From: Gemmatimonadota bacterium
GTDB lineage: Bacteria; Gemmatimonadota; Gemmatimonadetes; Gemmatimonadales; Gemmatimonadaceae
Reading direction: 5' to 3'
Length of the DNA stretch: 24,752 nucleotides
Assembly (NCBI GenBank): GCA_031372565.1
Contig: JANMLN010000146.1
Coordinates: 1 to 24,752 of the forward strand
A model generated the notes under the pieces. It was not told where the DNA came from and did not search any database. It saw only the letters and a list, made by a program, of their open reading frames with translations. Positions 8,623-24,752 of this stretch are shown here, one piece after another. Numbering within the stretch: position 1 is the first letter of the stretch; each line of letters opens with the position of its first letter. The position numbers were made by a program, and so were the translations under genes.

Positions 8623-8624
8623 AC

Positions 8625-9630: not shown

Positions 9631-9637
9631 GTCCGCC

Positions 9638-10162
9638 ATGCACCCGTTACGGACCCAACTCCTGATCATCGCTGCCGTGGTGGTCGCCGCAGACGTGCTC
9701 ACCAAGCAACTCGCCCTCGCCTTCCTGCCACCCACCGGCATGCCGATGGAGGTGGTGGGCGACTGGCTGCGCTTCACGCTGGCCTTCAATCGCGGCGCCG
9801 CGTTCGGCATGCACGTCGGGCCGTGGTCGCGGCTCGTGTTTTCGGCGTTCGCGATCGGGATGGTCGCCGTGCTGCTGGTCTCGGCGGGGCGCATGCACGG
9901 TCCCGCGCTCCGCATGGTGTCGGCCATGGGCCTGGTGGCGGGCGGTGCCGTGGGCAACCTGATCGACCGGATCCGGTGGGAACGCGGCGTGGTGGACTTC
10001 ATCGACGTCGGCGTCGGGATGACGCGGTTCTGGACATTCAACGTGGCCGATTCAGCCATCACGATCGGGGCCGTGCTGCTGCTCTGGCCGATGCCCGAGC
10101 CGGCGTCGACGGCGATGCCCGCCGACGCGCCGTCGGGTTCGGTCGGCCCGGGGACCTCGTGA
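9638..10162 (+). CDS. lspA: Lipoprotein signal peptidase II, copy 2
   Basis: Motifs ADVLTK, FNRGAAFG, GGAVGNLIDR, VVDFID, FNVAD. ATG lies 7 nt after the copy 1 stop. Confidence 0.92.
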   Translation: MHPLRTQLLIIAAVVVAADVLTKQLALAFLPPTGMPMEVVGDWLRFTLAFNRGAAFGMHVGPWSRLVFSAFAIGMVAVLLVSAGRMHGPALRMVSAMGLVAGGAVGNLIDRIRWERGVVDFIDVGVGMTRFWTFNVADSAITIGAVLLLWPMPEPASTAMPADAPSGSVGPGTS

Positions 10163-11169
10163 GCCAGGCCCCGGCGGCGGGCGGGCCCGCGCCGGGGCGC
10201 CACGAGCGGCTGGCGGACGAGTTGGCGGGCCAGCGCCTCGACCTCGCCATCGCCAGTTGGCTGGATGTCTCCCGGACGCGCGCCGCCACCCTCGTGGCCA
10301 CGGACCGGGTGCGCGTGAACGGTGCGCGTGAGCGCGCGAGCTACCAGGTCAACGCCGGCGACCGTCTGAGCGCCGATGTGCCGGCGCCAGAGGGACGCGA
10401 AGTCGTGGCGGAGGACATTCCGCTGACGGTCGTCTGGGAGGATGACGAGGTCCTCGTCGTCGACAAGCCTGCGGGCATGGTGGTGCACCCAGCCCCCGGC
10501 CATTGGACGGGGACGCTGGTCAACGCGCTCAAGGGGCGAGGCGGCGCGCTCAGCCCGACCGGCGATCCCGAGCGGGCGGGGCTCGTGCATCGGCTGGACA
10601 AGGATACGTCGGGCCTGTTGTTGGTCGCGCGTACCGAGCGCGCACACCGGGTGCTGTCGGCCGCGCTCGCGTCGCGTCGGATCGAACGGCGGTACGCGGC
10701 GGCCTGCTGGGGGCACCTGGAGGGGGACCGGCTGACCGTCGACAAGCCGGTGGGGCGGGACCCTCGCGATCGGCAGAAGATGGCGATCGTGGCGAACGGC
10801 CGGACCGCCAAGACCGACTTCCGGCGGCTCGCCCGGTTTCCGTCGGCCGACCTGTTGCAGGCGAAGCTGCATACGGGGCGCACCCACCAGATCCGGGTAC
10901 ATCTGGCCAGTGTGGGGCATCCCGTGCTCGGGGACGATACCTACGGCGGGGGGGGCGGACGGCGGTTGGCGGCGCTTCCGGCTCGACGGCACTGGCTGCA
11001 CGCCGCCTGGCTCCGGTTTCCGCATCCGGTCACCGGGGCGGTCGTCGACGTGCGGTCGCCCTTGCCGAGCGACCTCACGGCGTCGCTCATGGCGCTGGCC
11101 GAATCGTCGGATTCGTTTGCCGCACCCCTGACGCTGGAGTATTTTCACTTCTATCACGACGCCGACTGA
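10159..11169 (+). CDS. rluD: RluA-family 23S rRNA pseudouridine synthase with N-terminal S4 domain (RluD-like)
   Basis: S4-like RLDLAIA...SRTRAATLVATDRVRVNG, then VDKPAGMVVHP, catalytic HRLDKDTSG and TGRTHQIRVH. GTGA overlap with lspA copy 2. Confidence 0.92.
   Translation: MSQAPAAGGPAPGRHERLADELAGQRLDLAIASWLDVSRTRAATLVATDRVRVNGARERASYQVNAGDRLSADVPAPEGREVVAEDIPLTVVWEDDEVLVVDKPAGMVVHPAPGHWTGTLVNALKGRGGALSPTGDPERAGLVHRLDKDTSGLLLVARTERAHRVLSAALASRRIERRYAAACWGHLEGDRLTVDKPVGRDPRDRQKMAIVANGRTAKTDFRRLARFPSADLLQAKLHTGRTHQIRVHLASVGHPVLGDDTYGGGGGRRLAALPARRHWLHAAWLRFPHPVTGAVVDVRSPLPSDLTASLMALAESSDSFAAPLTLEYFHFYHDAD
11117..11145 (+). promoter_or_regulatory. Candidate sigma70-type promoter inside the rluD 3' end, driving the che/mgl operon
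   Basis: TTGCCG (11117-11122), 17-nt spacer, TATTTT (11140-11145), in a locally AT-rich patch. Confidence 0.5.
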
Positions 11170-11632: not shown

Positions 11633-11991
11633 GCCATACGGTGCTGGTCTGCGACGATGCGATCTTCATGCGCACCATGGTCGGCGACATCCTGCAGCAG
11701 GCAGGATTCGAGATCGTGGGTGAGGCAGAGACGGGGATCCAGGCAGTCGAGAAGTACAAGCAATTGCGGCCGGACCTGGTCACGATGGACATCGTGATGC
11801 CGGACATGGGCGGGATCGACGCCGTTCGTGAGATCACCAAGTTCGATCCGAACGCGAAGGTGCTGATGTGCAGCGCGATGGGACAGCAGGCGCTCGTCGT
11901 CGAGGCCATTCAAGCCGGCGCCAAGGATTTCGTGGTCAAGCCGTTCCAGCCCAGCCGCGTGCTCGAGGCGGTGCAGCGGGTCCTCGGCTAG
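11629..11991 (+). CDS. cheY: CheY single-domain response regulator (Bacillus/Thermotoga/DifD-like)
   Basis: VLVCDDAIFMR, PDLVTMDIVMP (phospho-Asp), MCSAMGQ, AGAKDFVVKPF. TTG start overlaps the cheW stop (TTGA) after a strong GGAG-rich SD. Confidence 0.95.
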   Translation: MSHTVLVCDDAIFMRTMVGDILQQAGFEIVGEAETGIQAVEKYKQLRPDLVTMDIVMPDMGGIDAVREITKFDPNAKVLMCSAMGQQALVVEAIQAGAKDFVVKPFQPSRVLEAVQRVLG

Positions 11992-12095
11992 CGACACGGG
12001 CGCGCTGGGTGTCCCGCGACGGGGCGCTCGGCCTGTCCGTCAGCGTGACGTGCGTCGGCTGCGGCCGGCGCTCCCCTTTCCGCGACCGAGCTCTG

Positions 12096-14027
12096 GTGGA
12101 TCCCTCCCGCTACGCCGCCCTGTTCCTGACGGAGAGCCAGGAACATCTCTCGGCGATCAACACGTCGCTGCTTGAGCTCGAACGCAGCCCCGGTGCCGAG
12201 GCCCCGGTGGCCGAGCTGTTCCGCGCGATGCACACGATCAAGGGGATGGCGGCGACGATGGGGTATCAGGCGGTCACCGAGATCGCGCATGAGGCGGAGT
12301 CGATGCTGGAGGGCGTCCGACGTGGCGCCATCCGCACCGACGCAACGGTGGCGGACCTGCTGTTCGCATCGGCCGACCTGCTCGAGCGGACGATCGAGGC
12401 CACGACCGGGGGACTGGTGCTGCCGGATTCGCGCGAGGTCCTCGAGCGCATGCGCACGATGACCCGTGCGGCGCGGGCCACACCGCCTCGTGCGATGGCC
12501 AGTGTGCGTGGGGCGCCGGTCGGCACGCGCGTGCAGGTGACGCTGGAGCCGGAGACACCGCTCAAGGGCGTGCGGGCCTGGATGGTCGCGCAGAAGCTGG
12601 CCGCGCTCGGCCGGTTGATCGCCACGGAGCCGCCCGAAGGCGCCCTGCAGAGCGAGCAGTTCGAGCGCGTGTTCACGGTCGTGCTCGACACCGGTGCGGC
12701 GCCCGAAGTGCTGATCGCGGCGGCGCGATCGGGCGGTCACGTGGAGGACGTGGACGTGACCCCGCCCGCTCGGCCAGCAGGCAGCGACGACGCGGCGGTC
12801 CCGCGCGGGTCACAGCCGGTCCACCGCGTGAGCGGCGCGGTCACGGCGGAGTTCGCGGTCGCCGACGCGACGGCGGGGAGCGCGCCGCGCGCGCAGCGCC
12901 ACATCCGCATCGACCTGCGTCGGCTGGATGCGCTGACCAACCTGATCGGCGAACTGGTGATCGCACGCGGCCGACTGCAGGCCATCGCCGCCGAGCGTCG
13001 GGACGCGGTGCTCGACGATGCCTTGTCGCACGCGTCCCGGCTGGTGAGCGACCTGCAGGACGAGATCATGACGAGCCGACTCGTTCCGGTCTGGCAGGTC
13101 TTCGACCGCTTCCCGCGGCTGGTACGCGACGCGGCGCGTTCACTGGGCAAGGATGTGGAGTTCGTGATCGAGGGCAAGGACATCGAGCTTGACCGCTCGA
13201 TGCTCGACGAGATCGGCGAGCCGATGGTGCACCTGCTGCGCAATGCCGTCGACCACGGTCTGGAGACGCCGGCCGAGCGTCGCTCGGCGGGCAAACCGCC
13301 GGCGGGACGACTGCGCCTCGCGGCGCTGCGCGATCGATCGAGCGTGCTCATCCGGGTGAGCGATGACGGGCGCGGGATCGATCGCGCCCGCGTGCTCGCC
13401 AAGGCGCAGCGGCTCGGGTTCGTGGACGCCGCGGTGGAAGAGTTGAGCGACGAGGAGCTCTTCCGCATGATCGCGAGGCCCGGATTCTCGACCAACGACG
13501 CGGTCACCGACCTGTCCGGCCGCGGGGTCGGTATCGACGCGGTGGCGACGCGGGTGCGACAGCTCGGTGGCACGTTGGAACTGCGCTCGGAGGAGGGGCG
13601 TGGCACGACGGTCACGGCGCGGCTGCCGGCCACGCTGGCGATCATTCGCGCGGTGCTCGCGCGCGTGGGCACCGAGACCTACGCCGTCCCCATGACGCAC
13701 GTCAGCGAGACGCTCGAACTCTCGGGCGAGGTGCGCGAGACGGTGAAGGGGCGGGAAGTGCTGTCGCTCCGCGACGACGTGCTCCCGCTCGTGCACCTGC
13801 GCGAACTGGTGCGCCTGCCGTGCCTGCGCGAACGCGTTGCCCACGTGATCGTGCTCGAAATGGCGGACCGGCGGACCGGCGTCCTCGTGGACCGGCTGCT
13901 CGGACAGCAGGATATCGTGGTCAAGCCCTTTGATGCCGTCACGGACGGCCTCGCGCTGTTCAGCGGGGCCACGATTCTCGGCGATGGTGCGCCTGCGCTG
14001 ATCCTTGACGTGAACTCCCTTCTCTGA
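12096..14027 (+). CDS. cheA: CheA histidine kinase (P1-P2-P3-P4-P5)
   Basis: HPt ELFRAMHTIKGMAATMG, P2-like segment, dimerisation IRIDLRRLDALTNLIGELVI, HLLRNAVDHG, DDGRGID, PGFST, SGRGVGID, CheW-like end GATILGDG. GTG 12096 chosen because the ORF-track start overlaps cheY. Confidence 0.95.
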   Translation: MDPSRYAALFLTESQEHLSAINTSLLELERSPGAEAPVAELFRAMHTIKGMAATMGYQAVTEIAHEAESMLEGVRRGAIRTDATVADLLFASADLLERTIEATTGGLVLPDSREVLERMRTMTRAARATPPRAMASVRGAPVGTRVQVTLEPETPLKGVRAWMVAQKLAALGRLIATEPPEGALQSEQFERVFTVVLDTGAAPEVLIAAARSGGHVEDVDVTPPARPAGSDDAAVPRGSQPVHRVSGAVTAEFAVADATAGSAPRAQRHIRIDLRRLDALTNLIGELVIARGRLQAIAAERRDAVLDDALSHASRLVSDLQDEIMTSRLVPVWQVFDRFPRLVRDAARSLGKDVEFVIEGKDIELDRSMLDEIGEPMVHLLRNAVDHGLETPAERRSAGKPPAGRLRLAALRDRSSVLIRVSDDGRGIDRARVLAKAQRLGFVDAAVEELSDEELFRMIARPGFSTNDAVTDLSGRGVGIDAVATRVRQLGGTLELRSEEGRGTTVTARLPATLAIIRAVLARVGTETYAVPMTHVSETLELSGEVRETVKGREVLSLRDDVLPLVHLRELVRLPCLRERVAHVIVLEMADRRTGVLVDRLLGQQDIVVKPFDAVTDGLALFSGATILGDGAPALILDVNSLL

Positions 14028-14037
14028 CGGTGGCAGC

Positions 14038-14658
14038 ATGGACGACCTCCGGACCCTGAATCCGCAGCAGATCGATGCGCTGCGCGAAGTCGCGAATATC
14101 GGCGCCGGTCATGCGGCGACGGCGCTCTCGCAGATGACCAACGCGACGATCATGATCAGCGTCCCGCGGATCAACATCGCGCCGCTCGAAGAGCTCCCGC
14201 CACAGCTGGCAGCGCCCGAGGAACCGGTGGCCGCCGTGCTCATGCAGATGCTTGGCGATCTGACCGGTCGCACGCTCCTGGTCTTTCCGAAGCCCACGGC
14301 GCTCCGGTTGTCCGAGCTGATGCTGCGGCGGCCGAAGGGATCCTCGACCGAGCTCGGCGAGTTGGAGCAGTCGGTGATCAAGGAGGCGTCGAACATCCTC
14401 AGCGGCGCCTACATGAACGCACTTTCCGATTTCATGGGGATGATGCTGCTGCCGTCGCCGCCGTCCCTCGCCATCGATTTCTCGGCGGCCGTCCTCACGA
14501 GCACCTACCTGCAGTTCGGCAACGACTACGACCTCGTGTTCTGCGTGGAGAGTTCGTTCTACATGAAGGACTACGACGAGCACCTGCGCGGCTTCTTCCT
14601 GCTGCTCCCCGACTCGGCGTCGCTGCAGGCGATCCTGCGCGCCGTGCGCGTGGCCTGA
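14038..14658 (+). CDS. cheC: CheC-family CheY-P phosphatase
   Basis: Two D/S-x3-E-x2-N motifs, DALREVANI and SVIKEASNI, followed by ISVP and LPSPP; C-terminal GFFLLLPD. Confidence 0.92.
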   Translation: MDDLRTLNPQQIDALREVANIGAGHAATALSQMTNATIMISVPRINIAPLEELPPQLAAPEEPVAAVLMQMLGDLTGRTLLVFPKPTALRLSELMLRRPKGSSTELGELEQSVIKEASNILSGAYMNALSDFMGMMLLPSPPSLAIDFSAAVLTSTYLQFGNDYDLVFCVESSFYMKDYDEHLRGFFLLLPDSASLQAILRAVRVA

Positions 14659-14673
14659 GGCGTACCGCCCACC

Positions 14674-17418
14674 GTGACCACCGGCACCCTCACTTCGGAG
14701 CGCGACCGCGATGTCCTGCGGTCGTTCGCCCGGCGGATCGATCCGTCGGATGCGGGGGCGCACAACAACCTCGGCGTGCTGTACTACAACAAGGGGCTGC
14801 ACGAGGAGGCGGTGCAGGCCTTCATGAGCGCGCTCGAGCTCGACTCGAAGATGCAGGTCGCGCAGCGCAATCTCGAGATCGCGTACTTCCAGACCGGGTA
14901 CTACGATCGGCGGGTCGGCGAGTTGCGGGAGACGCTGCGCGACCGGCCCGCGGACCGCGCCGCACGCTGGGAACTGGGGCGGACCTATGCGCTCCTCAAC
15001 GAGCACGCCGCCGCGCTCGCCGAGTTCACGGAGCTGCTCCGCCATCATCCGGCGGATCTCGGGGCGCTCGTGCAGACGGGACTCGCCGAGAAGGCCATCG
15101 GTGACCTCGATGACGCGTTGCGCTGGTTCGATCGCGCGGTCGTCCTCGACCCGGCGTCGTCACTGGTGCACTTTTACCGTGGCGAGGTGCTCTACAACAA
15201 GGGCCTCAATGACGATGCGCTCAAGGCGCTCGAGACGGCGGTCGATCTCAACCCCGAGAATGCCGACGCCCACTACCTGACCGCCTTCGTGCTCGGCGAC
15301 ATGGGTCGGCACGAGGACGCGCGCGCCGCGACCAAGCGCGCCATGCAGATCAACCCGTCGCTCGGGCGGGCGCACGCCAACCTCTCGATCGACCGCAACA
15401 ACGCGCAGACGTACGAGCAGCTCGTGCCCGGGGGCACGGAGCGCCGCTCACAGCAGATGATGGCCGTGTCCGAGGAGGGGCAGCTCGCGCACTACAACCT
15501 GGGTGTCGCCTTCCGCCAGAAGGGCTACTACCAGGACGCGCTGCGCGAGTACCGCATCGCGCTCGAGCGGGCCGAGGACCGCGACCTCGTGCGGCAGGCG
15601 ATGGCGGAGGTCTATCTGCTCACGCGCGACGTGCAGCAGGCCGTGGCCATGTACGACGAGGCGCTGCGCTACCAGCCCGGATCGCCCAAGCTGTGGAATG
15701 AGCGCGGCGTGGCGTTGCACCAGGATGGCCGCTTCGATGACGCGGCCACGAGCTATCGCAAGGCCATCGAGGCCGACGCCCGCTACCCGCTCGCGTGGAA
15801 CAACCTCGGCGTGGCGCTCTATCACGGCGGTCAGAGCGAAGACTCGATCGACGCGTTCCGGCGCGCCCTCGATATCGAGGCCACGTTCGTCAAGGCGCGG
15901 CTCAACCTCGCGTTGCTCCTCTACAAGAACAAGCGGCTGCAGCTCGCGCTGGAGGCGTACCGGCATGTGCTGGGCAGCGAGCCCGAGCATCCGGTGGCAT
16001 GGAACGGCATCGGCCTTGTCCTCGCCGAACTCAAGCGGTTCGAGGAGGCGCGCGCATCGTTCGCACGCGCGATCCAGGCGCGTCCCGACTACGCGGAAGC
16101 GCACTACAACGTGAGCTTCACGCTCTCGAACCTCGGCGACTTCGAGGGGGCGCTCCGCGAAACCAAGCGGGCCCTCGAACTCGACCCGTACTACGTCGCG
16201 CAGAAGTTCGAGCTCGCCATCGACCTGATGCACGAGGATCCGGACTTCTCCGTGGTGCCGGACCTGGGCGGTGAGCGGCGTTCGTCCGCCCCCGTGCAGG
16301 AATTCTCGTTCGATCCCGGGCTGCTCGACTCCGTGTTCACCACGCTCGCCGCCCCCGCCGCCGTGCCCGTGGCACCGGTCGCATCGGCGGCGCGGCCGTA
16401 CGCATCGGCCGAGGAGTTTCTCGCCATGCGACAGTACGAACGGGCGAGCGCCGAGGCGACGGCCGCCATGGCACGCGGCGCCGACAAGGTGGAGGGCCTC
16501 GCCGTGGTCGGCGACGTCTACGCCGCGCGTGGCCTGCACGGCGAGGCGCTCGAGCGCTTCACCGAGGCGCTCGCGCTCGCGCCCGACGCGTGGCGCGCGC
16601 AGGTGGGGCGGGTACGGGCGCTGCTGCAGCTCGGACGCGGTGGGCTCGCGCGCGCCGCCGCCGATGCGCTGCTCGACCAGGGCGGGCACGATCTCGACAC
16701 GCTCGTGCTCGTGGCCGATGCGCGCATGGCGGACGGCGACGGCGCGGCGGCCCTCGAGGCGCTCGCCAGTGCCGGCGCGCTCGCCCCGCAGCGCGCCGAC
16801 CTGCACAAGCGCACGGGTGATGCCTTGCGGTCGCTCGGCGATGCGCCTGCGGCGATGGCGGCGTACCGTCGCGCGCTGGACATCGACCCGGCCTTCGGCG
16901 TCGTGCGGCTCGAGTTGGCCCGCATGCTCGTGGCGCAGGGGGACGCGGCCGGCGCGGAGACGGAGTTGCACGCCGCCATCGATGCCGTGCCGACGTGGGC
17001 GGAGCCCAAGCTCGAGTTGGCCCGCGTGCTGCGCGCCACCGCGCGCCCGGACGAGGCGCTCTCGCTGCTCATTCCGCTGTTGAGCGCCAACCCGTACCAG
17101 TTCGAGGCGCTGCTCGTGCTCGGCGAGTCGCTGCTCGATGCGGCGCGCGTGCGCGACGCCGCCACGGCGTTCGCGCGGATCCTGCGCTTCGATCCCGCGC
17201 ATGTCGGGGCGCTCTACTACACGGGGTTGCTCCTCGCGCGACAGAGTCGTTGGCGCGACGCGATCATGGCTTGGCACCGGGTCGACGAGCTGGAACCCGC
17301 GAGCCTCTGGGCGCGCAAGGCGCGACACGAGGCCCGAACGGCCGCCGAGCTGTCGCACATCCTGCACGTCACGCCCGCCGCGTCCGCTGCCCTGCCCGAG
17401 CCGATGGAGGCCCGCTAG
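14674..17418 (+). CDS. Large cytoplasmic TPR-repeat protein (914 aa)
   Basis: Many TPR units (AHNNLGVLYYNKG, AHYNLGVAFRQKG, AWNNLGVALYHGG, AWNGIGLVLAELK) in three blocks. No signal peptide or catalytic domain recognised. Confidence 0.88.
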   Translation: MTTGTLTSERDRDVLRSFARRIDPSDAGAHNNLGVLYYNKGLHEEAVQAFMSALELDSKMQVAQRNLEIAYFQTGYYDRRVGELRETLRDRPADRAARWELGRTYALLNEHAAALAEFTELLRHHPADLGALVQTGLAEKAIGDLDDALRWFDRAVVLDPASSLVHFYRGEVLYNKGLNDDALKALETAVDLNPENADAHYLTAFVLGDMGRHEDARAATKRAMQINPSLGRAHANLSIDRNNAQTYEQLVPGGTERRSQQMMAVSEEGQLAHYNLGVAFRQKGYYQDALREYRIALERAEDRDLVRQAMAEVYLLTRDVQQAVAMYDEALRYQPGSPKLWNERGVALHQDGRFDDAATSYRKAIEADARYPLAWNNLGVALYHGGQSEDSIDAFRRALDIEATFVKARLNLALLLYKNKRLQLALEAYRHVLGSEPEHPVAWNGIGLVLAELKRFEEARASFARAIQARPDYAEAHYNVSFTLSNLGDFEGALRETKRALELDPYYVAQKFELAIDLMHEDPDFSVVPDLGGERRSSAPVQEFSFDPGLLDSVFTTLAAPAAVPVAPVASAARPYASAEEFLAMRQYERASAEATAAMARGADKVEGLAVVGDVYAARGLHGEALERFTEALALAPDAWRAQVGRVRALLQLGRGGLARAAADALLDQGGHDLDTLVLVADARMADGDGAAALEALASAGALAPQRADLHKRTGDALRSLGDAPAAMAAYRRALDIDPAFGVVRLELARMLVAQGDAAGAETELHAAIDAVPTWAEPKLELARVLRATARPDEALSLLIPLLSANPYQFEALLVLGESLLDAARVRDAATAFARILRFDPAHVGALYYTGLLLARQSRWRDAIMAWHRVDELEPASLWARKARHEARTAAELSHILHVTPAASAALPEPMEAR

Positions 17419-18570
17419 ATGGCGATCGAGGGCCCGCTCCGCGAACTCGGCATCCATGATGTCTTCCAGCTGCTCGACCTGAGCCGCAAGACCGGCACGC
17501 TCACGGTGACGTCGGAACTGCGCGACAACGAAGGCACGGTCTGGTTCGACGGCGGCAAGGTCATCTATGCCACGATCAAGTCCAACCCGCATCCGCTTGG
17601 CCTCATGCTCGTCAAGTCGGGCAAGGTCACGGAAGCCGATCTTGATCGGGCCTTGCTCATCCAGAAGACGCGCTCCGATGGCCGGCGCTTCGGCGAGATT
17701 CTCGTCGAACTCGGCGTCATCTCGCCGCGCGAGCTGGAGCGGCAGGTCAAGTTGCAGGTCGAGGAAGTCGTCTTCGAGCTGATGTCCTGGCGCGAGGGGT
17801 TCTTCTCGTTCATCGAGCGCGACGTCAGCGAGATTCCAGCCGCGGCCACGGTGCGCGTCGGGACCGAATCGCTGCTCATGGAGGGCGCGCGTCGCATCGA
17901 CGAGTGGTCACGCATTGCCGACAAGGTGCCGCATCTGGCCGTCATTCCCGTACTGGAGGAGGTCAGTGACGCGCACGCGGCGCATCTCGACCTGCTGCCC
18001 ACGGAGTGGGAGATGCTGACGATGATCGACGGGACCGCCGACCTCAAGGCCATCGCGAGCAACCTCGTGCGCAGCGAGTTCGACGTGGCGCGCATCGCCT
18101 ATGGCCTCGTGACCACGGGGGTCATCTCGTTGCGCATGCCGACGCGCGTGAGCGTGCGCGCGATGCTCCCCGTCGACGACGTCGCCCCGCACGTGGCGGC
18201 GGCGCAGGCCGCGCTCGACGCGGGCCAGCCCGAGGTCGCGCTCGTGTCCGCCCGGCACGCCGTGAACGCCGATCCCTCGAGCACCGAGGGGCGCATCGCC
18301 GTGGCGCGTGCCCTCGCGCGGCTTGGTCGCGCCGCCGAGGCCGTGGACGAGCTGCGCCGCGCTGCCCAGTCTGATCCGTCCAATCCCGACGTGTCGGTCC
18401 ATCTGGCCTTCGCGGCCGCGCGAAACGGCCAGATCTACGAGGCGATGGATCGGTGGTCTCGCTACCTGAGCGAGTCGCCAACGTCGCCGCACGCGGCTCG
18501 CGTACGCGCCGCGCTTGACGCGGCCCGCCAGCTCAACGTCCTGATCGAGGAGTTCGCGCATGTCGGATGA
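17419..18570 (+). CDS. DUF4388/PATAN-domain protein with degenerate MshEN-like insert and C-terminal TPRs
   Basis: MAIEGPLRELGIHDVFQLLDLSRKTGTLTV...GTVWFDGGKVIYA...WREGFFSF...ESLLMEGARRIDEW; TPR-like C-terminus. Paralogous to 22740-24362. Confidence 0.85.
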   Translation: MAIEGPLRELGIHDVFQLLDLSRKTGTLTVTSELRDNEGTVWFDGGKVIYATIKSNPHPLGLMLVKSGKVTEADLDRALLIQKTRSDGRRFGEILVELGVISPRELERQVKLQVEEVVFELMSWREGFFSFIERDVSEIPAAATVRVGTESLLMEGARRIDEWSRIADKVPHLAVIPVLEEVSDAHAAHLDLLPTEWEMLTMIDGTADLKAIASNLVRSEFDVARIAYGLVTTGVISLRMPTRVSVRAMLPVDDVAPHVAAAQAALDAGQPEVALVSARHAVNADPSSTEGRIAVARALARLGRAAEAVDELRRAAQSDPSNPDVSVHLAFAAARNGQIYEAMDRWSRYLSESPTSPHAARVRAALDAARQLNVLIEEFAHVG

Positions 18571-19393
18571 CATCGCTCGTCTGAGCGAAGAGTTGGCGCG
18601 CGACCCGGCCAGTCTTGCCTTCCTGGAGCTCGCCGAAACGTTGCGCAAGCGTGGTGATCTCGAGGTCGCCGAGAAGGTGGCCGTTCGGGGGCTCGAGCGT
18701 CATCCGCATCTCGGCACCGGACACGACGTCCTCGCGCGCATCTACGCCGACACGGGGGTCTTCGAGAAGGCCTTCGACGAGTGGGGCATGGTGCTTCGGC
18801 TGAGTCCCGGCCATCCGGGTGCCCTCAAGGGGCTCGGCTTCGTCTGCTTTCATCAGGGACGCATGGCCGAAGCCGAGACGTGGCTGTCGCAGGCGGCGGA
18901 GGTCGATCCCGCCGACCAGCGGAACCTCGGCGCGCTGGCCTACGTCCGCCAGCAGCTCGCCGACTCGGAGCCAGCCGCGTCGACCGTTGCCGCTGCCGCG
19001 TCGCCATCGGGGCCGCCCGCGGCAGCGCACGATGCGCGGTCGCTCTTCCACGACATCCTGGGTGCGGAGCAGGGGATGGCGCTGCTGCTTGACGAACATG
19101 GACTCGTGCTCGCCGGGGGGCACGAGGTGGACGGGCGCGATGTGGGGCAAGAGGTCGGCGCCCAACTGGGCGGCGTCAGCGACGAGGCCGAGCGGGCCAT
19201 GCGCCACCTCGGCCTGGGTGGATGGACCTCGATCGTGTTCGAGACCTCGCAGGCGACGGTGGCGATGTCGCCCGGCCCCGAACGCTCGCTCATGCTCGTG
19301 AGCGCGGGAAAGGCGACGCCGGTCGGGTTCGTGCGCCGCATGCTCGAGCGTTCCCTGCAGCGCGCCACCACCTTCCTGGCGGGGAGCGCATGA
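18560..19393 (+). CDS. TPR plus roadblock/LC7 fusion protein
   Basis: N-terminal TPRs (HDVLARIYADTG, ALKGLGFVCFHQG), Ala/Pro linker, roadblock-like C-terminus (ALLLDEHGLVLAG...LGLGGWTSIVFET...PVGFVRRML). Confidence 0.75.
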   Translation: MSDDIARLSEELARDPASLAFLELAETLRKRGDLEVAEKVAVRGLERHPHLGTGHDVLARIYADTGVFEKAFDEWGMVLRLSPGHPGALKGLGFVCFHQGRMAEAETWLSQAAEVDPADQRNLGALAYVRQQLADSEPAASTVAAAASPSGPPAAAHDARSLFHDILGAEQGMALLLDEHGLVLAGGHEVDGRDVGQEVGAQLGGVSDEAERAMRHLGLGGWTSIVFETSQATVAMSPGPERSLMLVSAGKATPVGFVRRMLERSLQRATTFLAGSA

Positions 19394-19746
19394 AGAACTC
19401 GCCCTTCGCCGATCTGCTGGGCGCGCTCGTGCGACAGCGCGGTGTGACCGCGGCCATGGTCGTCTCGGAGGCGGACGGTCTCATCGTCGACGCCCAAGTC
19501 TCCATCGGCATGCGTGGGGAGGTCGTCGCGGCACTCTCGGCGTCGCTGTATCGGCGGGCGCGCCTCGCCGCGCAGGCCGCGGGCTATGGCGAGACGACCG
19601 TGCTCCAGCTGGAGGCGGAGCAGGGGCGCATCTGCGCGGTCGGCAAGAACGACCTGGTCCTGGTGGCCGTGACCGAACTGGGCTCGAACATCGGCCTCGT
19701 GCGCATGGAGATGCTCAAGGGACTCCAGGGTGGGGCATTGGGATGA
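19390..19746 (+). CDS. Roadblock/LC7-domain protein, MglC-like (118 aa)
   Basis: GVTAAMVVSEADGLIVD...VAALSASLY...LVLVAVTELGSNIGLVRMEM. ATGA overlaps at both ends support the ATG 19390 start. Confidence 0.85.
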   Translation: MKNSPFADLLGALVRQRGVTAAMVVSEADGLIVDAQVSIGMRGEVVAALSASLYRRARLAAQAAGYGETTVLQLEAEQGRICAVGKNDLVLVAVTELGSNIGLVRMEMLKGLQGGALG

Positions 19747-20216
19747 CCACTGTTGCCGTCACCGAAGCATGGGCCGAAGCGCCCCTCCGTCAGTTCGTGG
19801 AGGACGCACGGGTCGATCTGGCCCTGCTGCTGCATGCCAGCGGACAGGTGCTCGGGCAGGCGGGCTTCGAACGGCGCATGGACGTGATGACGGCGTGCGC
19901 CCTCGCCGCGGGCATCAACGCGACGGCAGCGGAACTCGGGCGCATGCTCGACGGGAAGCCGTTCGGCGCGCTGCACTATGCCGGGAAGTCCAAGCAGACC
20001 TTTCTCGCACTGGTCGACACCCGGCGCGGCGCATTCCTGCTGTTCTGCGTGTTCGACGAGCGCGCCTCGCTCGGGATCGTGCAGTTGTACTTCGGCGAGT
20101 TCCGCCATCGGCTCTCGGCGGCGGCGCCGGACGCAGAGGGACCCTCGACCCCGCTCAACGAGCACTTCGAGGGGGAACTCAACCGCAACCTTGCGGCCCT
20201 CTTCGGCCGAACCTGA
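19743..20216 (+). CDS. mglB: MglB-like roadblock protein (putative GAP for MglA)
   Basis: LLHASGQVLGQAG...ALAAG...LGRMLDGKPF...VFDERASLGIV resembles myxobacterial MglB (VIFDNRTSLGLV). Has a C-terminal helix ending LAALFG and lies directly upstream of mglA. Confidence 0.75.
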   Translation: MTTVAVTEAWAEAPLRQFVEDARVDLALLLHASGQVLGQAGFERRMDVMTACALAAGINATAAELGRMLDGKPFGALHYAGKSKQTFLALVDTRRGAFLLFCVFDERASLGIVQLYFGEFRHRLSAAAPDAEGPSTPLNEHFEGELNRNLAALFGRT

Positions 20217-20228
20217 CGGAGCCCCAGC

Positions 20229-20831
20229 GTGTCCATCGTCAACTATGCTACGCGCGAGATCACGTGCAAGATCGTCTACTACGGGGCTGGTCGCTCCGGA
20301 AAGACGACCAACTTGCAGTACATCTATGCGCAGGTGCCGCCCGAGCGCAAAGGCAACATGGTCTCGTTGGCCACGCAAACCGATCGGACCCTCTTCTTCG
20401 ACTTCCTCCCGCTGGATCTCGGCAACATCTCGGGCTTCACCACGCGGTTCCAGCTGTACACGGTGCCGGGGCAGGTCTACTACCAGACGACGCGCAAGCT
20501 GGTGCTGCAGGGGGCCGACGGCGTGGTCTTCGTGGCCGACAGCCAGGCGCGCCAGTTGGCCGAGAATGTCGAGAGCCTGCAGGACTTGCACCTGAATCTG
20601 GCGGAGCACGGCATGGATGCCCGGCATGTGCCGCTCGTGATCCAGTACAACAAGCGCGACCTGCCGCCCGAGATGCTCACCGGGGTCGATGAGCTGCAGG
20701 AGGCCCTCAACTTCCGCGGCGTGCCAGATTTCCAGGCCGACGCATTGCATGGTCCCGGTGTCTTCGAGACCTTGCGGGGAATCTCCGAGCTCGTGTTGAA
20801 GAAGCTCTCTGCCCATCAGGCCGCGAAGTGA
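20229..20831 (+). CDS. mglA: MglA small Ras-like GTPase
   Basis: [37 protein letters not shown] (R53, T54), YTVPGQV (Q82), [17 protein letters not shown], colinear with M. xanthus MglA numbering. GTG start with GGAG SD at 20218-20221. Confidence 0.95.
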
Positions 20832-22738
20832 CCACGGGTTCGCGCTACCGGTTCGACACGTACATCGTCGGCGCGGCCAATCGGCTCGCCATGGCCGCCG
20901 CGCGCGCGGTGGCGGAGGGGCCGGGCACGGTGTACAACCCGCTCTTCATCTACGGGCCGAGCGGGCTCGGGAAGACGCACCTGCTGGCCGCCGTCGGCAC
21001 GCACGCGCGACAGCTCGCGCCGGATCTGGACGTCGAGTACGTGTCCTTCGACGACTTCGTCGAACAGTTCCACGCGGCCGTCTCCGGCGGCGAGATGGAG
21101 GCCTTCCGCCGCCGTTGGGTTGCGGTCGACGTGTTGCTCGTCGATGACGTGCAGTTCCTGACCGGTCGCCGCGAGTTGCAGAGCGAGCTGTTGCGATTGT
21201 TCAACACGCTGCAGGGGACCGGCAAGCAGATCGTGCTCACGAGCGACCGCCCGCCGCAGGAGATCGCCGACGTCGACGAGCGCCTCCTCTCGCGACTGGC
21301 GGGGGGCCTGATCGTGGATATCGGCGCGCCGGATTACGAAACGCGTCTCGCGATTCTGCGCTCGGCGTGCACCGAGCGCAGCGTGCAGCTGCCGGGTGAT
21401 GTGCTCGAAACGCTCGCACGGCTCGAGTTGCCCAACGTGCGCGAGCTGCATGGCGCCCTCAATCGGGTGATGGCCGAGCAGCAATTGGAGGGGCGCGCGG
21501 TCGCGTCGCGCGAGGTGTGGGGACTCGTCGGTGGCCGTGGCGCGCCGCCGGCGCCCGCCGAGTCCGCCGAGGCCAGCGAGTACGCATCGTTCCTGTCGGA
21601 CATCGCCAGCGCGGTCGCGGCGAGCGTTGATCCGTGGAAGACGCGCCTCGCGGAGGCGATCGCCTACTGGCGGGGTGAGGGCTTTCGCACCGGTGTGCTG
21701 GAACGCGCCATGCAGTTGAGCGCCTCGCCCGATGTTCAGGGGCTGCTCGATACGTTCGCCGCGGCGGTCGACCACTTGCGGCTGCTCGAGCGGCAGGCCG
21801 GGTCCGCCGACCCGCTGCTGGCCGGGCACGAGGTCTTCCGCGATCCCGAGCGCGTGGCCGATGCCGAAGCGCTGCTCGATCGTGCGCTCGCGGGTGACAC
21901 GCCACCACCAGCGCCCGATCCGGCGATGGTGCGCGCGAGCTTCGAGGTGGCCGGCTCGAACCAGCTGGCGGTGCGTGCCGCCGATGCCGTGGTGGCCGAG
22001 CCCGGTGCACGCTACAGTCCGCTCGTGATTCACGGACCGACCGGTACCGGCAAGACGCACCTGCTGCACGCGATCGGCAATGCGCTGCTCGCGAGCGGCG
22101 CGCGTCGCGTGGCCTGCGTCAACGCGGCCACGTTCGGCGAGGAACTCATCAGTGCGCTGCAGGAAGGCACGGTGCACCGGTGGCGCGCGCGCTACCGCGC
22201 GGTGGACGCGCTCCTGCTCGATGACATCCACGCCCTCGGCGGCAAGGAACGCACGCAGGAGGAGTTCTTCCACTTGTTCAACGAGTTGCACGGGCTGGGA
22301 CGGCAGATCGTGCTCACGAGCGGCGTCGCGCCGCGCGAGCTTGGCGGACTCGAGGAGCGCCTGCGGTCGCGCTTCGAGGGCGGGCTCGTGGTCAGCATTC
22401 AGCCCCCGGAGCGCGCGCTGCGCGAGGCGTTGTTCGCGCGGTGGTTCCGGGCGCAGGAGGTCCCGGCCGACGCCGAACTGCTGCGGTATCTCGGTGAGCG
22501 GCCGGCGGCCTCGTCGCGCGAAGTGCTCGGGACCGCGCGCCGGTTGCGCGATGCGGCGGGGCACGTCGGCCTGGCGCTGACGGTGGGCTTCGCGATGGAA
22601 ACGCTCGAGCCGCCCCGTCGTACCTCGATCGCCGTGCCGCGCCCGTCGGGCGGCATCGATGCCTTCCTGCTCAACGAGGAGAAGGTCGTCTGGGATTGGC
22701 CGGACCTGACCGGACGGCTGATCGAGGAGCTGCGCTGA
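20828..22738 (+). CDS. Tandem DnaA/Hda-type AAA+ ATPase (two DnaA domain-III modules, no domain I or IV)
   Basis: Walker A GPSGLGKT (20954-20977) and GPTGTGKT (22034-22057); Walker B LLVDD and LLLDD; Arg-finger boxes RLLSR and RLRSRF; sensor II NVREL and SSREV. GTGA overlap with mglA. Confidence 0.92.
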
Positions 22739-22739
22739 G

Positions 22740-24362
22740 ATGGCCATCAAGGGCTCCCTCCGCGAAGCGTCGCTGCCGGACGTGCTCCAGCTGCTCACGC
22801 TGGGGAAGAAGACCGGTTGCCTGTCGGTCACGCATCGCTCGAACTTCGGCTACATCTACTTCGACAAGGGGCGCATCTCGTACGCGTCCATCGTGAACCG
22901 CCGCGACCGGCTGGGCGACCTGCTGGTGAAGGGGGGCGCGATCCAGCAGGCGCAGCTCGACCAGGCGGTGGCGCAGCAGGCGCGCGAGCGCGACAAGCGC
23001 CTCGGCGAGATTCTCGTCGACATGGGGCTGCTCTCGCGGGACCAGCTGCACGCGCACATCCGCACGCAGATCGAGGAGGCGGTCTACTTCCTCTTCACGT
23101 GGACGCAGGGGACCTTCTCGTTCGAGCCCGACGTCCTGCCCGAGCAGCAGGACTTCACGGTGCTGATCAACCCGGAGTCGCTGCTGCTCGAAGGGGCGCG
23201 GCGCGTCGACGAGTGGTCGCTCATCGAGAAGAAGCTGCCGAGTTTCGATCTGGTCTTCGACGTGGACCGCCAGAAGCTGCGCGAGAGCGCCGTGCGCCTC
23301 ACCGACGAGCAGACGAAGCTCCTCGAGCTGATCGACGGCCGCCGCGACGTGACGATGCTCATCGAGGATTCCGGCCTGATCGAGTTCGATGTCGGCAAGG
23401 CCGTGTACGGCCTCATCACCGCCGGCTTCCTGCATCGCGTCGGCAAGAGCCGCACGACGACCGATGCGGTCTCCGAGGCGCGCGTCGAGGAGCATCGCAA
23501 CCTGGGTGTCGCGTTCTACAAGACGGGCATGCTCGACGAGGCGCTGCGCGAGTTCCGTCGGGTGCTCGACCTGCGCGAGGGCGACGTCGGTGCGCGCTTC
23601 TTCGTCGCGCTCGCGCACGCGCGACGCGGCGAGTGGGAACACGTCGTCTCGATCCTGCAGGAGATTGCCGCGGTTCCGGGCGGCAACAAGGTGGCGGTCT
23701 TCCACAACCTCGCCTCGGCGCTCGAACGACTGGGACGCTCGATGGAGGCGCGGGTTGCCCTCGATGAGGCGATCCGTCGCGGCGGCGCGCAGGATCCGGT
23801 CGTCCAGACCACGGCCGGCGTGATCGCGCTGCGCGAAGGTGACGCCAGCAGTGCCGATGCGACGCTGTCGGCGGCCCGATCGCTCTGGGGGCGGAAGCCG
23901 CCGCCACCGGCCTGGTTCCACTACGCGGCCCTCGCTGCCGCCCTCGCGGGCGACCTGCCGCGCGGCATCACGCTGCTCACCGAGGGCACGGGGATCCATC
24001 CGCATGCGGCCGCGCTGCACAACAACCTCGCGGCCATCCTCGAGCGCCGGGGACAGGTCGAGGACGCCATGAAGGCCGCGGAGCGCGGGGTGGTGGAGGA
24101 TGCGTCGCTCCCGCAGCTGCACAAGAACGTCGGGGACCTGCAGTATCGTGCGGCACATTACGACGAGGCGCTCGAGAGCTTCCAGCGCGCGGTGAAGCTC
24201 GCCCCCGAGCTCGGCGCCGACGTCCACATGAAGCTGGGCAACATCCGCTTTCGGCGTCAGGAGACGGCCGAGGCGGTGCGCCACTGGGAACGCGCCCTGG
24301 AACTCGATCCGGCGAACGCGATCGTGCGCGCCAACCTCGACGCCGTGCGCCGCGGCGGATGA
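22740..24362 (+). CDS. DUF4388/PATAN-domain protein with MshEN-type tandem motif and C-terminal TPR array
   Basis: MAIKGSLREASLPDVLQLLTLGKKTGCLSV...GYIYFDKGRISYA, two RLGxxLVxxG motifs, WTQGTFSF, ESLLLEGARRVDEW; TPRs such as HRNLGVAFYKTG, LHNNLAAIL, VHMKLGNIRF. Confidence 0.87.
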   Translation: MAIKGSLREASLPDVLQLLTLGKKTGCLSVTHRSNFGYIYFDKGRISYASIVNRRDRLGDLLVKGGAIQQAQLDQAVAQQARERDKRLGEILVDMGLLSRDQLHAHIRTQIEEAVYFLFTWTQGTFSFEPDVLPEQQDFTVLINPESLLLEGARRVDEWSLIEKKLPSFDLVFDVDRQKLRESAVRLTDEQTKLLELIDGRRDVTMLIEDSGLIEFDVGKAVYGLITAGFLHRVGKSRTTTDAVSEARVEEHRNLGVAFYKTGMLDEALREFRRVLDLREGDVGARFFVALAHARRGEWEHVVSILQEIAAVPGGNKVAVFHNLASALERLGRSMEARVALDEAIRRGGAQDPVVQTTAGVIALREGDASSADATLSAARSLWGRKPPPPAWFHYAALAAALAGDLPRGITLLTEGTGIHPHAAALHNNLAAILERRGQVEDAMKAAERGVVEDASLPQLHKNVGDLQYRAAHYDEALESFQRAVKLAPELGADVHMKLGNIRFRRQETAEAVRHWERALELDPANAIVRANLDAVRRGG

Positions 24363-24752
24363 CGATGAAGACCCCCGTGCGTCCGGATGCCGGCTTCGAG
24401 GCGCTCACGGGCAAGATCGCCCGCGAGAAGGGGTTTGCCTGCGCGTCGTACAAGCCGAGCTGCCTCATGCGCCGCGTGGCCGTGCGGATGCGCGCGCGCG
24501 CCGTGCACGACTACGCGGCGTATGCCCGGCTCCTCGACGCCGATCCGGTCGAGTACGAGCGACTGCTCGACGCGCTCACCATCAATGTCACGACGCTGCG
24601 GCGCAACGCGGACGCGTGGACGGCGCTCGAACGCGAGGCGCTGCCCCGGTTGCTCGATCACGTCCGCGGACCGGTGCGCGCGTGGAGCGCCGGCTGCTCG
24701 AGCGGCGAGGAGCCGTACACCGTGGCCATGGCGTTCGCGCGCGTGGCGGCCG
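24359..24752 (+). CDS. cheR: CheR protein-glutamate methyltransferase, 5' part (truncated by the window)
   Basis: Not in the ORF track; translated by hand from ATG 24359 (ATGA overlap): ...YKPSCLMRRVAVRMR...EYERLLDALTINVT...VRAWSAGCSSGEEPYTVAM. Confidence 0.92.
   Translation, partial: MTMKTPVRPDAGFEALTGKIAREKGFACASYKPSCLMRRVAVRMRARAVHDYAAYARLLDADPVEYERLLDALTINVTTLRRNADAWTALEREALPRLLDHVRGPVRAWSAGCSSGEEPYTVAMAFARVAA

Follow-up and report, generated by a model that had tools for sequence, protein, structure and literature searches.

What is a protein built from two DnaA ATPase cores doing among chemosensory and mglA genes? The question is raised by a window of 24,752 nucleotides, the whole stretch of DNA that was analysed, from a Gemmatimonadota bacterium. 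It contains a gene for a tandem DnaA-domain-III ATPase, here called 2xDnaA-III. To our knowledge, work on the ATPase core of DnaA has been confined to the initiation of replication and its control (DnaA, Hda and the helicase loaders). The joint reading that best explains the evidence, to which we give a probability of about 0.6, is that the gene product is a lineage-specific signalling ATPase rather than a replication initiator, and that it acts as a DnaA-fold ATP switch tethered to a putative c-di-GMP-sensing PATAN-TPR partner, feeding a Che/MglA module. The genes of the operon are as follows.

11868 to 14027, + strand: CheA histidine kinase.
14038 to 14658, + strand: CheC/CheX phosphatase.
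14674 to 17418, + strand: TPR protein of 914 residues.
17419 to 18570, + strand: upstream PATAN-TPR paralogue, with one relaxed MshEN-type motif at residue 90.
18560 to 19393, + strand: protein with TPR and Roadblock domains.
19390 to 19746, + strand: Roadblock/LC7 protein.
19743 to 20216, + strand: MglB-like protein, a weak match (20 bits against a cut-off of 200).
20229 to 20831, + strand: mglA (200 residues, TVPGQ with Thr78), its stop overlapping the start of 2xDnaA-III.
20828 to 22738, + strand: 2xDnaA-III (636 residues, GTG start, TGA stop).
22740 to 24362, + strand: PATAN(DUF4388)-TPR (540 residues), its ATG 1 nucleotide past the 2xDnaA-III stop.
24359 to 24752, + strand: CheR methyltransferase, cut by the contig end.

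Thr78 is a hallmark of MglA according to PMC3000849, and Gemmatimonadetes are among the holders of Group 1 MglA, with PATAN neighbours occasional, according to PMC4316618. Within 2xDnaA-III itself the following parts can be distinguished.

20840 to 21502, + strand: module 1, a complete DnaA-type AAA+ module with lid (residues 5 to 225).
20954 to 20977, + strand: Walker A of module 1, GPSGLGKT (residues 43 to 50).
21281 to 21313, + strand: box VII, or arginine-finger box, of module 1 (residues 152 to 162).
21569 to 21913, + strand: helical linker domain, family-specific (residues 248 to 362).
21920 to 22597, + strand: module 2, the second DnaA-type AAA+ module, intact here (residues 365 to 590).
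22034 to 22057, + strand: Walker A of module 2, GPTGTGKT (residues 403 to 410).
22358 to 22390, + strand: box VII, or arginine-finger box, of module 2 (residues 511 to 521).
22658 to 22735, + strand: conserved C-terminal peptide, predicted to dock (residues 611 to 636).

This layout agrees with a preliminary description of the locus, made from the letters alone, which had seen two complete domain-III modules with Walker A motifs 360 codons apart and had predicted two Bac_DnaA matches with neither DnaA_N nor Bac_DnaA_C. Pfam returns two Bac_DnaA stretches (summed E value 4.4e-104), and DnaA_N (PF11638) and Bac_DnaA_C (PF08299) have no match in the whole protein at E<=0.01. The Walker A motifs stand at residues 43 and 403, a spacing of exactly 360 residues. 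Walker B is present at 102 and 462, box VII at 152 (RLLSR) and 511 (RLRSR), and the Arg motif of sensor II at 205 and 564. Aligned with each other, the halves share 39% identity over 204 residues (E 1e-36), which is far beyond chance. The description had also stated that the protein starts directly at the ATPase module, that no domain IV follows module 2 and that the GTG overlaps the mglA stop, and all of this is borne out. The N-terminus reads VTTGSRYRF and the first Bac_DnaA domain begins about 5 residues in, with domains I and II absent; about 42 to 46 residues separate module 2 from the C-terminus; and the GTG at 20828 shares the letters GTGA (20828 to 20831) with the mglA TGA at 20829 to 20831.

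The linker domain is modelled with a pLDDT of 85.6 and has invariant residues F255, G285, P340 and A346. Foldseek finds no match to its model in the PDB at E<=0.001 (best 3.9), and the best match from a second structure aligner, a three-helix piece of myosin VI, has a Z score of 5.6, in a range common for helical bundles. A domain IV hidden in the linker or the tail was considered and rejected. The linker (residues 248 to 362) and the last 57 residues have zero Pfam matches even at E<=10, and domain IV is absent among the best 50 structure-aligner matches to the linker.

Is 2xDnaA-III nevertheless the replication initiator of this organism? The same genome encodes a separate DnaA of 475 residues (DnaA_N, Bac_DnaA and Bac_DnaA_C) that adjoins dnaN, with yidC nearby, on contig C156, and this contig holds the genome's sole PF08299 match. 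2xDnaA-III is therefore not the only dnaA of the genome, and the separate canonical dnaA-dnaN locus that had been anticipated exists. Replication genes are absent from the window and are never adjacent at the family loci examined. Of the features of DnaA, only the Bac_DnaA-type domain III is found, and domain I, domain IV and the dnaA-dnaN locus are lacking. It is because DnaA_N and Bac_DnaA_C are absent, and because a full dnaA adjoins dnaN elsewhere in the genome, that we read the protein as something other than the initiator. Automatic annotation says otherwise, as was foreseen. The TIGR00362 'DnaA' model gives 495 bits against a cut-off of 344, which is exceeded because the scores of the two modules add up, and JGI labels many homologues 'chromosomal replication initiator protein DnaA'. 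Other database names for the family are 'DnaA/Hda family protein' and 'DnaA ATPase domain-containing protein', and PF27219 is annotated on some homologues. Since the protein passes the DnaA model and is so often annotated as an initiator, the prediction of origins and analyses that rely on dnaA can go astray in Gemmatimonadota genomes.

Membership in related classes was also considered. Hda is a single DnaA-type module with an N-terminal clamp-binding motif. 2xDnaA-III resembles Hda in being a DnaA-type AAA+ protein that lacks domain IV, and the arginine finger of Hda is used in trans; unlike Hda it has two modules, and a clamp motif of the QL[SP]LPL type is not found in its N-terminus. The TIGR03420 score of 165.7 bits, below the cut-off of 194.8, agrees with the earlier statement that this is not an Hda. 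The IstB/DnaC helper ATPases do not fit either (NF038214, 107.4 bits against a cut-off of 200). Like p97, NSF and Rix7, 2xDnaA-III has two AAA+ modules in one chain, one possibly degenerate, but it belongs to a different AAA+ clade and gives no sign of a hexameric ring. A type II assignment of the p97/NSF kind was rejected, as the Foldseek rmsd is about 20 Å (18 to 27 Å, TM 0.24 to 0.30) and each module matches DnaA instead. No description of 2xDnaA-III was found in the available parts of the literature on MglA, DnaA paralogs, PATAN/MshEN/c-di-GMP and Gemmatimonas motility, PMC4316618 does not contain the word DnaA, and the available parts of PMC5013675 and PMC12448109 do not mention it.

2xDnaA-III is a conserved family across much of the class. 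A probe made from the linker domain finds it in 199 of 301 sampled Gemmatimonadota genomes, all of them in families that share the class of the window, and some families of this class gave no hit (f1, 54/69; f2, 121/125; f3, 3/3; f4, 4/6; f5, 1/1; f7, 11/47; f8, 4/4; f6, 0/23; f9 to f12, 0/22). The homologues form more than 120 clusters at 57 to 90% identity. The family signature, present here, consists of two Bac_DnaA modules, the linker domain, the WxWP...EEL peptide and a PATAN-TPR gene directly downstream. In three sets of loci this gene follows 2xDnaA-III directly in 29/29, 14/14 and 20/20 evaluable cases, and its start lies -1 to +4 nucleotides from the 2xDnaA-III stop in 38 of 42 loci, also in clades whose mglA is more than 1 Mb distant. 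The gene mglA is directly upstream in 28/29, 7/14 and 23/23 loci of the same sets. At six loci from family f7, mglA, mglB and Roadblock genes are all missing from the surrounding 7 kb or so, and in all five f7 genomes checked, four of them with one of these six loci, MglA is encoded at a distance of over 1 Mb or, in G116, on a different contig. Among the neighbours it is the PATAN-TPR gene downstream, and not mglA, that is most constant. The gene mglA, with which the preliminary description had paired 2xDnaA-III, is thus not its constant partner. That description had counted homologues unlinked to mglA or che genes against itself; taken to the letter, such homologues do occur in the f7-type clades, and the signalling reading survives them through PATAN-TPR, the fusions with MshEN and receiver domains and the predicted docking of the tail.

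Why has this gene been kept beside PATAN-TPR? A candidate for the signal lies within the PATAN domain of the neighbour.

22908 to 23069, + strand: two c-di-GMP motifs of the MshEN type, 24 residues each, within the PATAN domain (residues 57 to 80 and 87 to 110).

PATAN-TPR scores 52.6 bits with NF053729 (cut-off 38), and the relaxed MshEN motif, taken from PMC5013675, matches it twice, at residues 57 and 87, while 2 of 2000 shuffled sequences match. On motif and NF053729 score the protein can be placed among putative MshEN-type c-di-GMP receptors. The relaxed motif occurs in 35 of 42 PATAN-TPR neighbours, twice in 17 of them, and by regular expression 7 of the 42 have no copy. Natural fusions combine DnaA-III modules with other domains in one chain: MshEN with two Bac_DnaA modules (P0175, P0186) or with one (P0246), and two Bac_DnaA modules with a receiver domain (P0237). 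Nine genomes from three genera have no ATPase gene and have a PATAN-TPR orthologue missing residues of about 56 to 110 and the last TPRs; the relaxed motif is found by regular expression in 0 of 7 such orthologues tested, and as these correlated losses are confined to three genera they represent few independent events. One genome (G114) is an exception, having lost the ATPase gene and kept the PATAN insert. MshE/PilB-type ATPases are regulated by an N-terminal MshEN c-di-GMP domain, according to PMC5013675. The present system is similar in that an ATPase is coupled to a tandem 24-residue MshEN-type motif, with some relatives being direct MshEN-ATPase fusions. It differs in that the ATPase is a DnaA-clade AAA+ protein and not a secretion ATPase, and in that the motif of the window lies in the PATAN domain of a separate protein.

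Both modules have the fold of DnaA domain III (B. subtilis 8bv3/8btg, T. maritima 2z4r, A. aeolicus 2hcb/3r8f) and share with it Walker A and B, sensor I, the box VII arginine finger and sensor II. Unlike DnaA, 2xDnaA-III has two modules per chain, lacks domains I/II and the domain IV HTH and never stands beside dnaN; it also has a helical linker domain and a C-terminal peptide predicted to dock, and the FFHT stretch of module 1 is altered. Module 1 aligns with B. subtilis DnaA domain III ungapped (E 1e-57, about 50% identity), its model superposes on 8bv3 with a TM score of 0.93 and an rmsd of 1.5 Å, and its identity is 40 to 45% with the DnaAs of Gemmatimonadota and as much as 51.6% with those from other phyla. 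It retains nearly all residues that are invariant in canonical DnaA, including the basic residue preceding the FFHTFN helix (R114 in module 1, K473-R475 in module 2), and the invariant FFHT stretch itself reads LLRL. Given the near-complete set of invariant residues and the identity to the B. subtilis protein, module 1 might bind single-stranded DNA or DnaA. It could be asked, along the lines of an alternative in the preliminary description, whether 2xDnaA-III regulates the real DnaA, by co-assembling with or capping DnaA-ATP filaments or by spurring hydrolysis like Hda, and so couples c-di-GMP, chemosensory or polarity signals to initiation. The closeness of module 1 to DnaA and the retention of both arginine-finger boxes speak for such a role. 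We consider it unlikely, however, since replication genes are never adjacent, module 1 has LLRL in place of FFHT, and many genomes of the phylum have DnaA and no 2xDnaA-III; being missing from so many DnaA-bearing genomes, it is no general part of initiation. The module phylogeny, which the preliminary description had proposed, also argues against it. In an unrooted tree a branch with an SH-aLRT of 96 has all 61 DnaAs on one side, and neither module nests inside them; as an unrooted tree of three groups, it does not allow the sisterhood of modules 1 and 2 to be read from it. Two IstB proteins of the same genome, used as an outgroup, attach inside module 1 without support on a branch of length 4.1, and an AU test does not reject a clade of modules 1 and 2 (p 0.84), which does not establish such a clade.

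A bolder version, which we regard as speculative and rather improbable, would have 2xDnaA-III polymerise in an ATP-driven, c-di-GMP-gated manner into DnaA-like head-to-tail filaments that, tethered by the tail to PATAN-TPR, serve the MglA polarity module as a polar scaffold or timer, perhaps co-polymerising with DnaA. If it did co-polymerise with DnaA, an initiator-derived filament would tie decisions on polarity or motility to the start of chromosome replication.

Returning to the reading of a tethered signalling ATPase, the tether itself can be sought in the C-terminal tail. The motif EKVVWxWP...RxIEEL is conserved in all clades (E618 in 51/51, W624 in 50/51 and E633 in 50/51 aligned members), and the monomer model leaves the tail undocked, at a pLDDT of 41 to 57. 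The complex prediction places it in the following part of PATAN-TPR.

23586 to 24224, + strand: TPR region predicted to hold the C-terminal peptide (PATAN-TPR residues 283 to 495).

Complexes of the tail (residues 580 to 636) with full PATAN-TPR, predicted with self-built alignments and with the partner at a pLDDT of only 52 to 54, reach ipSAE values of 0.80, 0.78 and 0.78, and the best of three controls reaches 0.00. Of solved complexes, 116 of 157 reach the mark used for the docking score, as do 2 of 215 mismatched pairs. As TPR-peptide complexes are common among solved structures, the pass may partly reflect likeness to these. The predicted contacts are between tail residues 610 to 636 and the TPR region, the runs sharing at least 60% of them, and the TPR residues of the predicted interface are more conserved than the others (entropy 1.37, n=46, against 1.76, n=205; one-sided p=0.003). 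The tail is thus predicted to dock in the TPR groove. Peptides of the EEVD type at the C-termini of Hsp70 and Hsp90 are bound by TPR clamps, and the acidic extreme C-terminus of 2xDnaA-III (IEELR) is likewise predicted to lie in a TPR groove; unlike the EEVD peptides, its motif is longer, has a WxWP core and belongs to an unrelated context, with the binding being a prediction. The tail motif was not found at the C-terminus of any other protein in this genome. One chance-like match to it lies in a 61-residue frame of the same genome.

It could be argued that 2xDnaA-III is merely an operon-mate of PATAN-TPR and MglA that binds neither, its tail folding back or binding another TPR protein of the cluster; the docking prediction covered one partner and the operon has three other TPR proteins. 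We think this quite improbable. The tail and the adjacency to PATAN-TPR are kept in f7 and in a minimal form with one module and the same tail (G204), both of which lack the other TPR genes in the vicinity, and the 0.00 scores of all three controls and the undocked tail of the monomer model also stand against it.

How would a tethered ATPase work? In module 1 every ATPase motif is kept in 51 of 51 aligned family members. In the f7 members Walker A and Walker B of module 2 are destroyed in 6/6 and RLR[ST]RF is retained in 6/6; the lid of module 2 is gone in f7 and f4 relatives, and its arginine-finger box is conserved even where its own ATP site is degenerate. In the composite ATP sites of ORC/Cdc6, a subunit whose own site is degenerate provides the arginine finger that completes the site of an active subunit. 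The f7 members, with a live site in module 1 and a dead-P-loop module that keeps its arginine finger, resemble this arrangement; unlike ORC/Cdc6, the 'subunits' are fused in one bacterial chain, and the comparison is an analogy only. Module 1 would be the working ATP site, and module 2 would complete an ATP site with its DnaA-type arginine finger, most simply the site of module 1 in the same chain or a neighbouring molecule. The full-length model, with a pTM of 0.48, gives no confident interface between the modules, so this pairing of finger and site is one that we infer. The pair may form a built-in head-to-tail DnaA-like dimer that acts as a nucleotide-dependent switch. The EKVVWxWP...RxIEEL peptide in the TPR groove would tether the ATPase, and the MshEN-type insert of the PATAN domain may bind c-di-GMP and gate the ATPase or its assembly, by analogy with the MshEN control of MshE-type ATPases. 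In most lineages the pair would be wired into an operon with CheA/CheC/CheR, MglA/MglB and Roadblock proteins, and this membership suggests that the system probably acts on cell polarity or surface motility as its output.

The interpretation given in the preliminary description is partly supported, including its broad notion that signalling has taken over an initiator fold. The DnaA fold has been duplicated, left without a DNA-binding domain, given a predicted docking peptide and fixed beside a putative second-messenger sensor, in an operon of chemosensory and small-GTPase genes, and this holds for much of a soil phylum that has been little studied. If the model is true, the protein would represent a new class among c-di-GMP-controlled ATPases and, for PATAN and MglA systems, a new partner, as well as a natural AAA+ pair of the initiator clade whose one module has turned into an arginine-finger donor.

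DnaA domain III binds single-stranded DNA through a region of basic residues, and in cyanobacteria the type IV pilus motor is a target of PATAN regulators, but the resulting idea that 2xDnaA-III, with its DnaA-III fold and retained R114 and K473-R475, is an ATP-dependent binder of single-stranded nucleic acid, for example at a PATAN-controlled type IV pilus or competence machine, is pure inference and very improbable, as the window has no pilus or competence genes and several residues in the helix after the basic motif are altered in module 1.

As for the range beyond the phylum, a scan of genome-collection contigs covered 2 of 64 parts. The sole title from outside the Gemmatimonadota belongs to a 15 kb contig (L089) named 'uncultured Acidimicrobiia', which carries a complete operon of the Gemmatimonadota type and may reflect mis-binning or transfer.

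The ORF at 20828-22738 (+) is genuine and encodes, from a GTG start that overlaps the mglA stop (GTGA), a protein of 636 aa, here called 2xDnaA-III. The preliminary description had read in it two complete DnaA domain-III modules with Walker A motifs 360 codons apart, no domain I, no domain IV and a start overlapping mglA, and this observation is confirmed in every point. Pfam gives two Bac_DnaA stretches (summed E 4.4e-104) and no match to DnaA_N or Bac_DnaA_C, and the linker (aa 248-362) and the last 57 residues have zero Pfam matches even at E<=10. Exactly 360 residues separate the Walker A motifs, at 43 and 403. Both halves, whose identity is 39% across 204 residues (E 1e-36), also have Walker B, a box VII with the arginine finger and the sensor-II arginine. 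Each module has the fold of DnaA domain III; module 1 matches domain III of B. subtilis DnaA without a gap (E 1e-57), and the predicted model fits 8bv3 with a TM of 0.93 and an rmsd of 1.5 A. The linker is modelled confidently as a helical domain (pLDDT 85.6), for which structure comparison found no clear match to a known fold.

A complete DnaA of 475 aa (DnaA_N, Bac_DnaA and Bac_DnaA_C) is encoded on contig C156 of the same genome, where dnaN adjoins it and yidC is nearby; the genome thus has a separate canonical dnaA-dnaN locus. 2xDnaA-III is probably not the initiator but a signalling partner of the protein encoded directly downstream, PATAN-TPR (540 aa; PATAN is DUF4388). The predicted mislabelling as dnaA does occur. 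The protein reaches 495 bits with the curated DnaA model TIGR00362 (cut-off 344), since its two modules add up, and a large number of homologues are listed at JGI as 'chromosomal replication initiator protein DnaA'. The names given by NCBI are 'DnaA/Hda family protein', 'ATP-binding protein' and 'DnaA ATPase domain-containing protein'. Database names for the family are only generic or wrong, and no description of the protein was found in the literature searched. We see in it an initiator-clade AAA+ protein whose architecture, partner and setting are all new. Some homologues (e.g. P0055, P0056, P0066) have a precomputed match to PF27219, which may already cover part of the family. Two IstB-type IS21 helper ATPases of this genome (C2:244-537, C32:2478-2771) give weak Bac_DnaA matches of 31.7 and 21.1 bits.

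The constant partner of 2xDnaA-III is PATAN-TPR, not mglA.

Genes of the window, in order
Outer part (+): ileS, a dksA-like gene, lspA, rluD
Next (+): cheA, cheC/X, the gene for a 914-aa TPR protein, PATAN(DUF4388)-TPR, TPR-Roadblock, Roadblock
End (+): MglB-like (weak match only), mglA, 2xDnaA-III, second PATAN-TPR, cheR at the contig end

Neighbours of 2xDnaA-III genes
29 loci: mglA directly upstream in 28/29, PATAN-TPR directly downstream in 29/29
14 wider loci: mglA directly upstream in 7/14, PATAN-TPR directly downstream in 14/14
Evaluable named loci: mglA directly upstream in 23/23, PATAN-TPR directly downstream in 20/20

PATAN-TPR is downstream in all loci and starts -1 to +4 nt from the ATPase stop in 38 of 42 (largest gap 28 nt), so the coupling to the downstream gene is the tighter and more universal one. 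Translational coupling to mglA, as first claimed, holds here and in most of families f1, f2 and f4 but fails in six f7 loci, which have no mglA, mglB or Roadblock gene inside ~7 kb. Their order is ileS, rluD, 2xDnaA-III, PATAN-TPR, the outer flanks of the window minus the che/mgl block. In all five f7 genomes checked, four of them among the six loci, MglA is encoded elsewhere, >1 Mb off or on another contig (G116). The ileS to rluD block (window 5326-11169, compared with locus L037) precedes the pair both here and in f7 genomes, and the cheA-to-mglA block of about 9 kb, which lies between rluD and the pair in the window and is absent in f7, behaves as one insertion/deletion unit. In genus g10 (L155/L157, genomes G074/G184) all that is left of the operon is cheA, cheC, a PATAN-TPR gene without the insert, and cheR; the TPR, Roadblock, mglB, mglA and ATPase genes are missing from the locus. 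The MglA of the window has a TVPGQ motif with Thr78, a hallmark described in PMC3000849.

The two modules differ in how well they are kept. Each of the 51 aligned members has a module 1 with Walker A and B, sensors I and II and box VII. Module 2 has stayed intact in the majority of f1 and f2 proteins, and one f1 protein carries a K-to-R exchange in Walker A. In both f4 members module 2 is without lid and sensor II. In all six f7 proteins its Walker A is destroyed and Walker B reads DG, HG, YD or YG, but the box VII motif RLR[ST]RF[ED].GL is kept. With the ATP site given up and the arginine finger retained, module 2 would most simply provide an arginine finger to another site, presumably that of module 1; the full-length model, at a pTM of 0.48, does not place the two modules against each other with confidence. 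In an unrooted tree built from 113 sequences of domain III, modules 1 and 2 form separate clades (26 rows and SH-aLRT 99 each), both with members of all families sampled, and all 61 canonical DnaAs, six from Gemmatimonadota among them, fall on one side of a branch (SH-aLRT 96). The two-module state therefore arose before these families diverged, and the DnaA of the phylum was not the recent source of either module. That 2xDnaA-III regulates the genuine DnaA is unlikely, but has to be considered because module 1 is so DnaA-like. Most of the columns with 85% or more conservation among canonical DnaAs are kept; in module 1 LLRL replaces FFHT, and several other columns differ. The singleton P0196 (673 aa, from a contig of 2.6 kb) combines two Bac_DnaA modules with a Bac_DnaA_C domain IV; it represents either an intermediate in evolution or an error of assembly.

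An extreme C-terminal motif is common to all clades, in the window as [26 protein letters not shown]. E618 is found in 51 of 51 members, W624 and E633 in 50, W622 and R630 in 47, and P625 and E634 in 46; no other protein of the window's genome ends with it. The tail is undocked and of low confidence in the monomer model. Predicted complexes of aa 580-636 with whole PATAN-TPR scored ipSAE 0.80, 0.78 and 0.78 (best of three controls 0.00). Of the solved complexes 116 of 157 attain that mark, and of the mismatched pairs 2 of 215, though complexes of TPR domains with peptides are frequent among known structures and likeness may contribute to the score. At least 60% of contacts agreed between runs, with partner pLDDT of 52-54. 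The confident predicted contacts join tail residues 610-636 to TPR residues 283-495. The TPR residues in contact vary less than the others of that region (entropy 1.37 vs 1.76, p 0.003), and D466 and G492 are invariant. The modelling supports binding of the tail in the TPR domain but is no proof of it. That 2xDnaA-III is a mere operon neighbour that does not bind is unlikely. An ssDNA-handling role is more improbable still. G204 encodes a single-module protein (L153 3105-3956 (-), about 255-283 aa) with intact motifs and the same WDWP...VEDLD tail, its gene lying between rluD and PATAN-TPR; this form shows that a minimal unit of one module and the tail is viable.

Residues 57-110 of PATAN-TPR match the NCBIfam model of an MshE-related c-di-GMP motif above cut-off. 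The relaxed 24-residue MshEN motif, as printed in PMC5013675, occurs twice there, and 2 of 2000 shuffles match at all. By regular expression, this motif occurs twice in 17 of 42 ATPase-gene neighbours and once in 18, while 7 have no match. The upstream PATAN-TPR paralogue (17419-18570, +) has one such motif at aa 90, so that two PATAN proteins of the operon may sense c-di-GMP. A putative second-messenger link is also what natural fusions suggest: P0175 (1876 aa) and P0186 (1990 aa) join an N-terminal MshEN to two Bac_DnaA modules, P0246 joins MshEN to one module without domain IV, and P0237 has a response-regulator receiver domain where the tail region usually sits, after two modules. The modules of P0175 and P0186 are parted by about 1300 residues with no domain assignment. 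Nine genomes without the ATPase gene (genera g5, g10, g22) have a PATAN-TPR orthologue that is short of its last TPRs and of residues ~56-110. In several of these genomes it directly follows mglA, and none of seven tested had the motif by regular expression. G114 lost the ATPase gene and kept the insert; the losses are few independent events, which makes this a correlation and not proof.

The Myxococcus counterpart of the Che/MglA/MglB/Roadblock module controls polarity or surface motility. In the best-supported reading, 2xDnaA-III would be an ATP switch with the fold of DnaA, held by its tail to a PATAN-TPR protein that senses c-di-GMP, and in most lineages it would feed a module to which, by analogy, that function is assigned. 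We give this whole chain a probability of roughly 0.6, and a higher one to the narrower reading of a non-initiator that partners PATAN-TPR in signalling.

Homologues form >120 clusters at 57-90% identity, Gemmatimonadota where named; the lowest identity among full-length relatives in an exhaustive representative search was 31%, and Gemmatimonadota is the commonest source of ESM Atlas clusters. The family-specific linker, used as a presence probe, was found in 199 of 301 sampled Gemmatimonadota genomes.

Genomes with a linker match, by family of the sample
f1: 54/69
f2: 121/125
f3: 3/3
f4: 4/6
f5: 1/1
f6: 0/23
f7: 11/47
f8: 4/4
f9: 0/3
f10: 0/13
f11: 0/3
f12: 0/3

Of the misses, at least one (G295) is an artefact of a contig edge, and another (G204) is the single-module variant, which has no linker. 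The tallies include four unpublished genomes (G157, G182, G057, G097), on which alone no claim rests; G157 (L022) is a row in alignments A2 and A3. In public genomes (2 of 64 parts scanned), 23 of 24 two-module loci have Gemmatimonadota titles. A 15 kb contig titled 'uncultured Acidimicrobiia' (L089) has a complete Gemmatimonadota-type operon from TPR-Roadblock to cheR and is either mis-binned or horizontally transferred. At G127:C1:304828-306800 and G198:C1:3023976-3025939 the two modules are in different frames or parted by TAG, which reflects a natural gene split, a frameshift or an error of sequencing.
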